Shown piece after piece: positions 42,054 through 45,252 of a stretch of 49,781 nucleotides of DNA. Made by a program: the position numbers and the translations under genes. The notes under the pieces are model-generated. The model had not been told where the DNA came from. It ran no database searches and saw only the letters and a list, made by a program, of their open reading frames with translations. The number at the start of each line of letters is the position of its first letter. Position 1 is the stretch's first letter. The DNA comes from an uncultured Rickettsiales bacterium (lineage in GTDB: Bacteria > Pseudomonadota > Alphaproteobacteria > Rickettsiales > UBA8987). The DNA is taken from positions 27,927 to 77,707 of the forward strand of contig CAZLZP010000002.1 of the NCBI GenBank assembly GCA_964564045.1, in the 5' to 3' direction.

Positions 42054-42965
42054 ATGCCAGAAGGAAATAAAATTACTTTCAATAGCGAGAACAAGCCTTC
42101 AGGGCTTTCAGAAATTCTTGAGAAATTAGCAAAAGAACAGGCTGTAGAAGGCAAAGAACCAGTTATCACCGCGCGTGACGGCAGCAAAATTTATCGTGCT
42201 AATGTTACTATCGATGCATCGGCTACTTCAGAAAAAATAATTATACCAGGCGGCACGGTTGGAGATTTTAATGCTCGCCCGAATGATGATGGTACAATTA
42301 CATTCAGCCATAAATTACGTGAATCTGGTGTTACTATATATTCGGTTACCGTGAAGAATGGACCAGACATATCTTTCGTGGATGGTAAAGGAAATGTTAC
42401 TGAGGGTGCAAAATACTTAGCTTCAACAGATAGCTATTCACTAAGTACAGTAGCGCCTGTAGCAACGGCAGAAATACAAGATATTTCACAATTGGCAGAA
42501 AGAAAAGCACCTAAGGCTGATTCTCCAGCGCCGGCAAAAATAGAGTTAGCAGAGGCCAAGCTAGTTGTTGAAACGGACAACAGGGGCAAGCCTGTATCAA
42601 TTAATTTGGTTGGTAAAAACGGCGAGCTGATTGAAGGTAGAGAAGGCAAATCAATTGAAGTAACTCGTTTGCACATCCCTTCAAAGCAGGAAATGAGTTT
42701 TATAGATAGGGCTGATGATATTCTTTCCAGGTACAAGGGGCAGTATAATATTAAAGTTGAATATGGTGGCGTTGAACTTAACCGCGAAGAATTACAACTT
42801 GTTTACGAAAGTGGAAATCCGAAAAAGGCTTTAGTAGCTATAGAACAAAAACGTGAGGCTATTGCTTCGGCGGCTGGTATGGTTTCTAGTGAAGTTACAG
42901 CCGCCTCAGGACTAGCGTACAATCCTGGCGGGCAGGGTGTATCCGGCCCTATTGTCAGACAATAG
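42054..42965 (+). CDS. Orphan protein, paralog family member P2
   Basis: It is a 303-aa ORF with a strong SD. It shares the N-terminal module (MPEGNKITFNS; IYRANVTIDASATSEKIIIPGGTVGDFNARPNDDGTITFSHKLR) and a mid block (ETDNRGKPVSINLVGKNGELIEG) with P3. Confidence 0.75.
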   Translation: MPEGNKITFNSENKPSGLSEILEKLAKEQAVEGKEPVITARDGSKIYRANVTIDASATSEKIIIPGGTVGDFNARPNDDGTITFSHKLRESGVTIYSVTVKNGPDISFVDGKGNVTEGAKYLASTDSYSLSTVAPVATAEIQDISQLAERKAPKADSPAPAKIELAEAKLVVETDNRGKPVSINLVGKNGELIEGREGKSIEVTRLHIPSKQEMSFIDRADDILSRYKGQYNIKVEYGGVELNREELQLVYESGNPKKALVAIEQKREAIASAAGMVSSEVTAASGLAYNPGGQGVSGPIVRQ

Positions 42966-43000
42966 TTCTTGGATATCAAGTAGTTAACATATAGATTTTG

Positions 43001-43033
43001 GTTAACACTTTCTTAACCATTTTGTGGTATAAT
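43001..43033 (+). promoter_or_regulatory. Composite promoter, copy B: GTTAACACTTT-CTTAACCATTT-TGTGG-TATAAT
   Basis: It has the same geometry as the other copies. The -10 ends only 6 nt before the ATG at 43040. An extra GTTAAC lies at 42983..42988. Confidence 0.8.
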
Positions 43034-43039
43034 GGCGGT

Positions 43040-44152
43040 ATGAAACGAAAGATAGACATAAGCCTTACTTCTGCCATGCCGCATGAAACCATGGTAGCAA
43101 TGGTCATGCTTGGAAAAAATACAATTGCAGAAAATACATTAGTAATTTCTGATTACGAGCAGCAAGGTTACGTTGTTAAGAAAGATTCCACGGGTTTAGC
43201 AAGTGTAAGAATAGGTTCGCCTCCTTATCCAGATAACGAGGTTTATGGATTTTCACAGAAGCAGTTAAGTTTTCTTGAGCAATATTTAATTCAATATGAA
43301 GGAACCTTACCTAAGGAAAAAAGAATATTCACAGATGAAAGCATGCTTCACAATAAGCGTAAGGCGTTTACTCAGCAACTTCTGAACGAGCCTGAATTTT
43401 ATTCAAAAATGCAAAGGGAAGTAGCGGCAAGAATGCTTGAATATCAGCTGCTGAAAACAGAGATAAATAAAGGAGCCACTAATATAATTAATGTGGGTGA
43501 TAAGTTGTTCCCTCTATCGGAGATGCTATCTGTTGCGCATCCTAAAATAAATATTTATGAAGCAAGTTTTGCAAAGGCAACTCGTGATGAAAAGAAAGGA
43601 CTGTTAAAAGCTGTTTTAGAAAAAAATGTACAGCAGCTTGAAGCTCGTGAAGTGGGTGTTAGGCCTATTTCTTTAGGTAAGGTAAAACGTTTCAATTACG
43701 ATCCTCGTTCGCAGGATATAACTTCAGTATTGGTGCCAGATAAAATAAATCCTCAGCAGATATGTGTTTTTAATATCGCCGCTGTCAGAGGTGCAATTTC
43801 TACCGATCTTCCAGATCATTTGCTTCAGGCCGCGGATAATTTTGCTTCAGTGTGTCAGTTGGGTAGTACCGTTCTGCACAGATATCCAAAAGTAGAAAGA
43901 ACTGGTTTAAAAACATTTGAAGATGGCCTGGCAATAAAGTCAACTGTTGTTGGTAAATTAGAAGTAGCGCAGCAGGTTGATTTTCCTTCAGCAAAAATAG
44001 GCGATGAAGCAATAGCAGTTGCAAGGCTTACAACTCTGGAGAAAAGAGAAGTGCATGTGGGTGTTGCCGGTGCTGCAGAAAGAGCAAACGTTCTTGCAGG
44101 CGTACTTTCAAAAAGAAATAATGGACAATACGAGATTCCGTTTGGAAGGTAA
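43040..44152 (+). CDS. Orphan hypothetical protein (370 aa), possibly translated from a leaderless mRNA
   Basis: The ORF begins MKRKIDISL. The ORF-track TTG start at 42998 lies inside the promoter and is rejected. I recognise no family. Confidence 0.65.
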   Translation: MKRKIDISLTSAMPHETMVAMVMLGKNTIAENTLVISDYEQQGYVVKKDSTGLASVRIGSPPYPDNEVYGFSQKQLSFLEQYLIQYEGTLPKEKRIFTDESMLHNKRKAFTQQLLNEPEFYSKMQREVAARMLEYQLLKTEINKGATNIINVGDKLFPLSEMLSVAHPKINIYEASFAKATRDEKKGLLKAVLEKNVQQLEAREVGVRPISLGKVKRFNYDPRSQDITSVLVPDKINPQQICVFNIAAVRGAISTDLPDHLLQAADNFASVCQLGSTVLHRYPKVERTGLKTFEDGLAIKSTVVGKLEVAQQVDFPSAKIGDEAIAVARLTTLEKREVHVGVAGAAERANVLAGVLSKRNNGQYEIPFGR

Positions 44153-44217
44153 TTAAAAACATGCCGGGAAATGAAAAAATTCTAGAAGTTGATTTATATT
44201 ATACCTAAAAAAGAAAC

Positions 44218-45252
44218 ATGCCCGATCCAACAATAATTATATTCGATGATAAAACCAGAGTAGATCATTTATTTTCTTTGCTGGCAACGTACTCAGGTAA
44301 AATAGAAGTATCATCTTTCGATGATATATACTTTAAAGGTAATTATATACTAGATGGGACTAATAGCCCAGACGATAAGCTTGTTATTCCAGGTGCGGTT
44401 CTAAAAGATTTTGATGTTTATATTTATCCCAGCGGAAAGGTTAAACTAACGCGTACATACCGTGAATCAGAAACATACCGTCCAGAATTTTCACTTACTA
44501 TTTCTGGCTTTGATGAGATAAAATTCTCTAAATGGGGTTTAGAACACCCAGGCTTTCTAAAAGACCCAGAAGGGAAATACATAGTTACAGAAAGCAACAG
44601 CAGGCCTAGATCTTTAGGCAAAGATATGAGCACTAATTCAGATGGCCCACGTTCAGAGGTAATAGCTAATCCTATAATTCAGATAGAAAGATCACATAAA
44701 GGTAACCTGATAAAATCAGTTAGACTTCTTGATGGAAGTGGCCAAGAGGTTTGTAGCCATTCGGCTTTAGGTATTAATTTTGCTCCCAAGGATTCTGGTT
44801 ATGATTACGAATTTACAATCCCGGAATTTTATAGAAGCGCAGTTGATGATGCATCTAAAAGTTATAATGGCGCTGCAGAGCTTGTGGAATTTCTTTACAA
44901 AAAATATTCTCTTAGTGGAGATACGCCGATAGTTTTAGATGGGAGAATAATAGGTTTTAATGAGCTTGGCCTTGTATTAGGCAGTAGTGATAAGTATCTG
45001 GAAAGTCTTAGAGGGGTGGTAGAAGAATACAATTTGTACAATCATGCTATAAGGATACAAAGAGAAGATGGTTTAGGTTTGCCTAAAGAATTTGAAGAAA
45101 TATTCCGTAAGTTTTCTATAGAAGAAGAATTGGGTTCTATTTTTGAAAAAGCAAAAAATTTTGTAATGGCTCAAGAAATTTCAATTGCTGATGAGTCTGT
45201 GGCAGATAAAAAAGGTATTAACACAATTGCTAAAAAACTTCAAATCACTTAA
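44218..45252 (+). CDS. Orphan protein, paralog family member P3
   Basis: It is a 344-aa ORF. The blocks MPDPTIIIFDD and IYFKGNYILDGTNSPDDKLVIPGAVLKDFDVYIYPSGKVKLTRTYR align with P1 and P2. ERSHKGNLIKSVRLLDGSGQEVCS aligns with P2. It has no composite promoter of its own and is probably co-transcribed with 43040..44152. Confidence 0.7.
   Translation: MPDPTIIIFDDKTRVDHLFSLLATYSGKIEVSSFDDIYFKGNYILDGTNSPDDKLVIPGAVLKDFDVYIYPSGKVKLTRTYRESETYRPEFSLTISGFDEIKFSKWGLEHPGFLKDPEGKYIVTESNSRPRSLGKDMSTNSDGPRSEVIANPIIQIERSHKGNLIKSVRLLDGSGQEVCSHSALGINFAPKDSGYDYEFTIPEFYRSAVDDASKSYNGAAELVEFLYKKYSLSGDTPIVLDGRIIGFNELGLVLGSSDKYLESLRGVVEEYNLYNHAIRIQREDGLGLPKEFEEIFRKFSIEEELGSIFEKAKNFVMAQEISIADESVADKKGINTIAKKLQIT

Follow-up and report, generated by a model that had tools for sequence, protein, structure and literature searches.

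The interval between secA and lipB in the genome of an uncultured alphaproteobacterium holds three genes, P2, MID (the middle gene) and P3, which we tentatively read as a CtrA-regulated, fast-turnover, lineage-specific accessory locus encoding modular, possibly exported proteins. The locus belongs to a stretch of 49,781 nt that was analysed as a whole and is referred to below as the window. New in this account are the recognition of the promoter motif as a CtrA box, the association of that motif with orphan genes, a slot that is conserved while its cargo changes, and a very rare domain family with a relative in a flagellar operon. The locus, which follows secA, has these features:

39145-41916 (likely start 39181), plus strand: secA, the left flank; Pfam SecA_DEAD (PF07517), P-loop_SecA, SecA_SW and SEC-C
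41987-42018, plus strand: promoter 1, before P2; box TTAACCTTTTGTTAAC at 41987-42002, a 10-nt T-rich spacer, TAGAAT at 42013-42018
42054-42965, plus strand: P2, 303 aa; N-terminal beta domain at about aa 1-112 (42054-42389), Ala/Pro-rich linker, unique C-terminal part
43002-43033, plus strand: promoter 2, before MID; box TTAACACTTTCTTAAC at 43002-43017, a 10-nt spacer, TATAAT at 43028-43033
43040-44152, plus strand: MID, 370 aa counted from the ATG; no relation to P2 or P3, no homologs found
44218-45252, plus strand: P3, 344 aa; N-terminal domain at about aa 1-125 (44218-44592), Ser/Arg/Pro linker, unique C-terminal part
45245-45868, minus strand: lipB, the right flank, convergent with P3; Pfam LplA-B_cat (PF21948)

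A first-pass annotation had proposed three co-oriented open reading frames (ORFs) between secA and lipB. All three were found on the plus strand at the positions and lengths listed, and both flanks were verified by Pfam, which also placed CinA and then DapD further on past lipB. In the proposed frames, GC content decreases from the first through the second to the third codon position (GC1 > GC2 > GC3), and the known genes nearby show the same trend. This pattern fits real coding sequence, and we regard P2, MID and P3 as real genes. A Shine-Dalgarno sequence, GGTGGAG, stands 8 nt 5' of P2, the stop regions of P3 and lipB overlap by 8 nt, and the secA-lipB interval contains no minus-strand ORF longer than 100 aa.

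The element that ties the locus to a regulator is a composite promoter. Two copies had been reported to drive the cluster, and both were found, at 41987-42018 and 43002-43033; they had not been recognised as containing a CtrA box. Each consists of a perfect TTAAC-N6-TTAAC box, exactly 10 nt of T-rich sequence and then TAnAAT, and together they belong to a near-invariant cassette, GTTAAC-NN-TTT-N-TTAAC-C-N-TTTTGTGGTATAAT. The boxes match the CtrA consensus, TTAA-N7-TTAAC (PMC7200025; PMC9791040), and occupy the -35 position. Perfect TTAAC-N6-TTAAC sites occur six times in the window against an expectation of 0.18, while 77 loci from other alphaproteobacteria (1.24 Mb) contained three, or 0.12 per 50 kb. 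The full geometry was present at five of the six sites; these five are intergenic and oriented toward a gene, and the gene was Pfam-less in five of five cases (11 such genes among 46 models; hypergeometric p = 3e-4). Judged from motif, position and enrichment, it is probable that CtrA binds these boxes. Beyond the two at the locus, the composite promoters in the window are:

9413-9444, plus strand: before an orphan gene at 9460-10572
27673-27704, minus strand: before a 119-aa orphan at 27278-27637
47370-47401, plus strand: before an orphan of at least 769 aa, cut off by the end of the window

The box of the promoter at 9413 (plus strand), TTAACCATTTGTTAAC, includes the 8-mer TTAACCAT. The orphan behind it (9460-10572, plus strand, 370 aa) has a HELGH zinc-protease motif and a weak, sub-threshold match (E = 0.0036) to Peptidase_M91, the NleD-type effector protease family. 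The 119-aa orphan (27278-27637, minus strand) is acidic and has the lowest GC3 in the window, 0.21. The sixth perfect site (33146-33161, plus strand) lies inside a 656-aa permease-like ORF (31963-33933), with no -10 hexamer at the expected spacing, and may have arisen by chance or serve as an internal regulatory site.

The arrangement of the promoters suggests two transcription units. Since the ATG of MID (43040) lies only 6 nt past the -10 hexamer, the MID mRNA is probably leaderless. P3 follows MID after a gap of 66 nt with no intervening terminator and no box of its own, from which co-transcription of P3 with MID seems probable; terminators were found nowhere in the secA-lipB interval. In their identical motif with half-sites one helical turn apart, their box at -35 at a fixed distance from a good -10 hexamer and their strong intergenic enrichment, these promoters are like the CtrA-activated promoters of Caulobacter and other alphaproteobacteria (class II flagellar, ccrM). 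Unlike those, they stand in the window before genes that are all lineage-specific and domain-less rather than before cell-cycle, flagellar or chemotaxis genes, and their box and extended -10 are nearly invariant, the CtrA site being predicted from sequence.

We compared the interval with its counterparts in related genomes, a check that the first-pass annotation had proposed. The nearest genomes by SecA were three uncultured metagenome-assembled genomes (MAGs) with 80% (L001), 78% (L002) and 70% identity, all others having ≤60%. Adjacency of secA and lipB was limited to the two closest, L001 and L002, whose LipB proteins are 76% and 69% identical to that of the window, and synteny was broken in L003. 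The interval proved variable among these relatives. It spans 3.3 kb in the window, without an Smr gene; 1.26 kb in L001, with a gene for an LCM-like methyltransferase (PF04072, E = 8e-13) and a minus-strand Smr gene; and 2.7 kb in L002, with a 583-aa orphan containing a HEMEH (HExxH) motif, a 145-aa orphan and Smr. The three cargos showed no mutual similarity, and neither relative's cargo resembled P2, MID or P3. MID was also compared individually with the L001 methyltransferase and the L002 proteins, and kinship was rejected (z ≤ 1.1). The cassette downstream of secA, by comparison, is kept before the first gene in all three genomes (L001 at 12778: TTAACGGTTTTTTAAG, 10 nt, TATAAT; L002 at 12785: TTAATGTTTAATTAAC, 10 nt, TATAAT), and the remaining intergenic DNA could not be aligned. 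The box after dapD is kept too, at 47370 in the window, at 16058 in L001 and with one mismatch in L002.

Several smaller observations concern the same regions. The Smr-domain gene lies between cargo and lipB in L001 (13716-13982) and L002 (15131-15415); no remnant of it was found under P3 or near 45252. The regions downstream of dapD (window 47370-49781, plus strand; L001 16058-18286; L002 about 17510-19560) encode large low-complexity or coiled-coil proteins of at least 769, 681 and 659 aa, respectively, which are mutually unalignable. L003 has a duplicated promoter segment (19095-19140 and 21203-21250), with TTGACA, a TTAA-N7-TTAA in the spacer and TAATAT, before two tandem genes; the first (19179-21074) encodes a protein with RTX calcium-binding repeats (Pfam), and the second, starting near 21287, has a similar N-terminus.

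The proteins themselves appear to be modular. P2 and P3 had been described as full-length paralogs, but their relation is limited to the N-terminal ~105-125 aa. Within that part the reported alignment holds (BLASTP E = 2e-5; Smith-Waterman shuffle z = 9.8). The mid and C-terminal blocks that were said to align have negative BLOSUM62 scores in the stated register (-10 and -8), and no relation was detectable between the C-terminal halves of P2 and P3 (local z = 0.9, semi-global z = 0.7). Our comparison agrees with the earlier statement that MID is unrelated to both. A further paralog, missing from that account, was found elsewhere in the window:

17724-18845, minus strand: P1, 373 aa, third paralog; N-terminal domain at about aa 1-135 (18441-18845), C-terminal part unrelated

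The N-terminal domain (N-domain) of P1 matched that of P3 with 38% identity over 85 aa (E = 1.5e-9) and that of P2 with 27% over 115 aa (E = 9e-6; both tblastn), with shuffle z-scores of 12.6-14.5 against the two. P1 and dnaJ (16585-17727) converge, with a 4-nt overlap of their stop regions (17724-17727), similar to P3 and lipB. Upstream of P1 there is a TGn-extended TACAAT -10 hexamer, and the box is present in degenerate form only.

Relatives outside the window are exceedingly rare. For P2, MID and P3, searches of Pfam, NCBIfam, PHROGs and PADLOC gave no domain above threshold, as the first-pass annotation had maintained, and profile searches assigned none of them to a housekeeping family. 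The best curated-family matches were far under the cut-off (LapA, E = 0.11; filamin Ig, E = 0.12), and PDB sequences yielded nothing significant. Word-seeded searches with each protein against 5.8 billion proteins returned the queries alone. With the three proteins joined into one query, an exhaustive HMMER search of 1.84 billion representatives returned the three queries and one other protein, P0004 (757 aa). This sole outside relative matched P3 with E = 8.7e-7 and with 52% identity over P3 residues 53-117 (40% over the aligned region), including the near-identical stretch FS(L/I)TI(S/K)GFDEIKF..W.LEHPG. Metagenome and viral contigs scanned with two N-domain alignments gave no match, nor did tblastn against plasmids, and when an N-domain hidden Markov model was run on every ORF of 82 loci, no additional members emerged. 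Past its N-domain, P0004 has an Ala/Lys-rich region, a Pro-rich region and two internal repeats, and is unrelated to the window proteins. Comparison of P2, P3, P1 and P0004 therefore shows one plan, in which a conserved N-domain is followed by a low-complexity linker and then by a C-terminal part that is unrelated between members, and on their sequences the four proteins constitute a very small new modular family.

P0004 is encoded on a 16.5-kb metagenomic contig (L081; L082 is the identical sequence) with a GC content of 42.5%, similar to that of the window. The contig carries two composite promoters of identical geometry. One stands before a 638-aa orphan (promoter and gene together at 2648-4594) and the other before a row comprising a 204-aa orphan, an 89-aa orphan, P0004, fliK, flgD and flgE, in which P0004 is directly upstream of fliK-flgD-flgE. 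Strong terminators bracket the row, and the only internal hairpin is weak. FliK, FlgD and FlgE are export substrates of the flagellar type III apparatus. The same contig encodes a 374-aa RTX repeat protein (15305-16429).

A structure model of the N-domain, made with AlphaFold2 from the four-sequence alignment, was of moderate confidence (pLDDT 76.4, pTM 0.72) and mostly beta, with eleven strands and one helix. Foldseek searches of the model against PDB and BFVD, a collection of predicted viral protein structures, produced weak matches only (best E = 0.013-0.02, TM ≤0.39), to delivery regions of large clostridial toxins, RTX-like beta rolls and phage proteins, and these assignments were rejected. 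Kinship of the N-domain to FlgE, FlgD, FliK or the RTX protein was rejected as well. Here hhalign, hmmsearch and Smith-Waterman each chose a different region of FlgE, and since the regions were inconsistent and the best score (z = 4.4) occurred in one paralog only, the similarity to FlgE was treated as noise. The single-sequence AlphaFold2 prediction for MID was unusable (pLDDT 36).

The composition of the interval was also assessed. It had been called visibly AT-rich, and the difference is real (37.9% GC against 41.9% for the window) but modest, with other 1-kb bins equally low. The suggested check of codon usage gave a GC3 of 0.30, 0.28 and 0.23 for P2, MID and P3 against a core median of 0.42, but a synonymous codon choice within the core range. 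Low GC3 is common to the Pfam-less ORFs of the window (median 0.28, Mann-Whitney p = 9e-5 against core genes), being found in nine of 11, including all three cluster genes. As codon choice is native-like, recent foreign acquisition is not indicated. Searches for signatures of mobility revealed no tRNA, integrase, transposase, meaningful flanking repeat, phage family or Rfam match. The interval has the look of native accessory DNA that evolves fast, rather than of a recent foreign insertion. Two other Pfam-less ORFs with low GC3, at 23942-24811 (plus strand, 289 aa) and 35920-36369 (plus strand, 149 aa), lack a CtrA box; for the 149-aa ORF, L001 contains a weak relative (33% over 73 aa, E = 0.003).

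The mechanism that we propose starts with phosphorylated CtrA (CtrA~P), which would bind the TTAAC-N6-TTAAC box standing in for a -35 element; the TGn-extended -10 hexamer exactly 10 nt downstream would complete a CtrA-activated promoter. Two transcription units would be activated in this way, P2 alone and leaderless MID, probably with P3. The N-domain would serve as a shared targeting or export module and the C-terminal parts as diversified working ends, with MID as an independent cargo under its own CtrA promoter. Synthesis would fall in the CtrA-on stage, and the proteins would work outside the cytoplasm, on the surface, a host or a competitor. The N-domain would be explained most simply as such a shared module, to which diversified C-terminal parts are attached. 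Exported or interaction proteins would be in keeping with the narrow distribution, the occurrence of several divergent copies, the cargo replacement in relatives and the flagellar-export neighbourhood of P0004, none of which is proof. The same holds for sister cargo with an HExxH motif (HELGH in the 9460-10572 orphan of the window, HEMEH in L002), which fits such a role and is no proof of it. An export or effector-like role of the cluster proteins is possible but rather doubtful, and an effector role in particular is plausible but unproven.

Resemblances to described systems are partial. With effector or accessory islets of host-associated bacteria, the locus shares low-GC3 orphans between conserved genes and cargo that differs among close relatives; it differs from them in having no mobility genes or repeats, a promoter that stays fixed while the cargo changes, and no identified secretion system or translocation signal. 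Non-flagellar proteins exported via the flagellar type III apparatus, such as Campylobacter Cia, FlaC and FspA and Yersinia YplA, offer another parallel, in that Sec signals are lacking, P0004 is apparently co-transcribed with FliK, FlgD and FlgE, and the regulator also controls flagella. Flagellar export signals are short and disordered, unlike the folded ~120-aa domain here, and export by that route would be hypothetical. The fullest version of the idea would be a clade with fixed CtrA "expression slots" after secA and dapD, exchanged cargo, and an N-domain that acts as an export module (possibly flagellar type III) for effectors; on the sequence data we consider this version a long shot.

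A number of results weigh against a CtrA-regulated locus for exported proteins. A secretion signal in the cluster proteins could not be demonstrated, and no secretion system, chaperone or immunity gene linked to the cluster was found in the window. The window does not contain ctrA itself, P3 and P1 lack the box, and the flagellar link comes from a single organism. The codon choice of the cluster is native-like (z = -1.5 to -0.2 under the core model). The role of the N-domain is conjecture because the fold search gave no confident match. Finally, genes for DAHP synthase, prephenate dehydratase, malic enzyme and DapD are present in the window; with these biosynthetic enzymes, the genome is not strongly reduced, and obligate intracellular life is not implied.

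The principal rival explanation, which we judge unlikely, is that the proteins are components or accessory factors of the flagellum or cell pole, structural or regulatory, within a CtrA motility-development regulon, with the N-domain docking them in place and their action confined to the bacterium or its envelope rather than directed at a host. The sole outside homolog directly precedes fliK-flgD-flgE, in a row that starts behind a CtrA-box promoter and is flanked by strong terminators; this position would suit such a role, as would the control of flagellar genes and flagellar synthesis by CtrA in alphaproteobacteria (PMC7200025) and the lack of a Sec signal in any of the proteins. On that last point the first-pass annotation had reported neither signal peptides nor transmembrane segments, and we concur, the maximum 19-residue Kyte-Doolittle mean being ≤1.18, so that no hydrophobic signal or transmembrane segment is present. 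Flagellar parts are usually conserved, whereas this family has one match in 1.84e9 proteins, and a single genome holds three divergent copies whose C-terminal parts are unrelated, which also counts against this role. The window is also devoid of flagellar genes, and the comparisons with FlgD, FlgE, FliK and RTX gave no consistent match. A polymorphic toxin locus, in which the N-domain would deliver a variable C-terminal toxin and MID would provide immunity or an accessory function, seems improbable. It shares with MIX and PAAR/Rhs proteins of type VI secretion systems (T6SS), LXG proteins of type VII secretion systems (T7SS) and CdiA the plan of a conserved N-domain, a linker and unrelated C-termini in several copies per genome, together with rapid divergence and narrow distribution. 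Unlike in those systems, the N-domain has no sequence or confident structural similarity to theirs and there are no adjacent immunity genes or linked apparatus: Pfam and PADLOC found no toxin, immunity, PAAR, Rhs, LXG, MIX or CdiA domains, no T6SS, T7SS or contact-dependent inhibition (CDI) genes lie nearby, convergent lipB follows directly after P3, no small immunity ORF lies downstream of P3 or P1, and MID is large (370 aa) and has its own promoter.

That the interval is a recently acquired mobile island, left for instance by a phage, insertion sequence or integrative element and of no use to the host bacterium, would account for a GC3 below that of core genes and for content that differs among relatives. 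We find it quite improbable, given that no tRNA, integrase, transposase, flanking repeat or phage-family match was found, that synonymous codon choice is within the core range, that the promoter motif is native to the clade, conserved, and found at a conserved position, and that a further paralog, P1, sits elsewhere among core genes. Spurious or decaying ORFs without a functional protein product would explain the lack of homologs and the poor single-sequence structure prediction for MID. This is highly improbable, because frames of 303-370 codons stay open in DNA of 38% GC, codon-position GC is like that of real genes, strong promoters of the conserved type and a Shine-Dalgarno sequence are present, and the N-domain is 40-52% identical to another organism's protein and folds with a pLDDT of 76.

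If our preferred reading of a CtrA-regulated accessory locus is true, CtrA here drives rapidly replaced lineage-specific proteins besides its usual cell-cycle and motility targets, and the invariant promoter would offer an easy means of finding such genes genome-wide, both in this lineage and in related MAGs. If it is not, the locus is one more hypothetical-gene cluster in a MAG. The locus defines a new protein domain with four members among ~15 billion sequences, and its modular design together with the flagellar neighbourhood offers a concrete hypothesis for a delivery module.

Just 5' of secA, the window carries two tandem ORFs (38291-38659 and 38750-39106, plus strand) of 122 and 118 aa. 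Both are Pfam-less, with lipoprotein-like N-termini and LLTSC/LTAC lipoboxes, and L002 has one related copy at the equivalent place.

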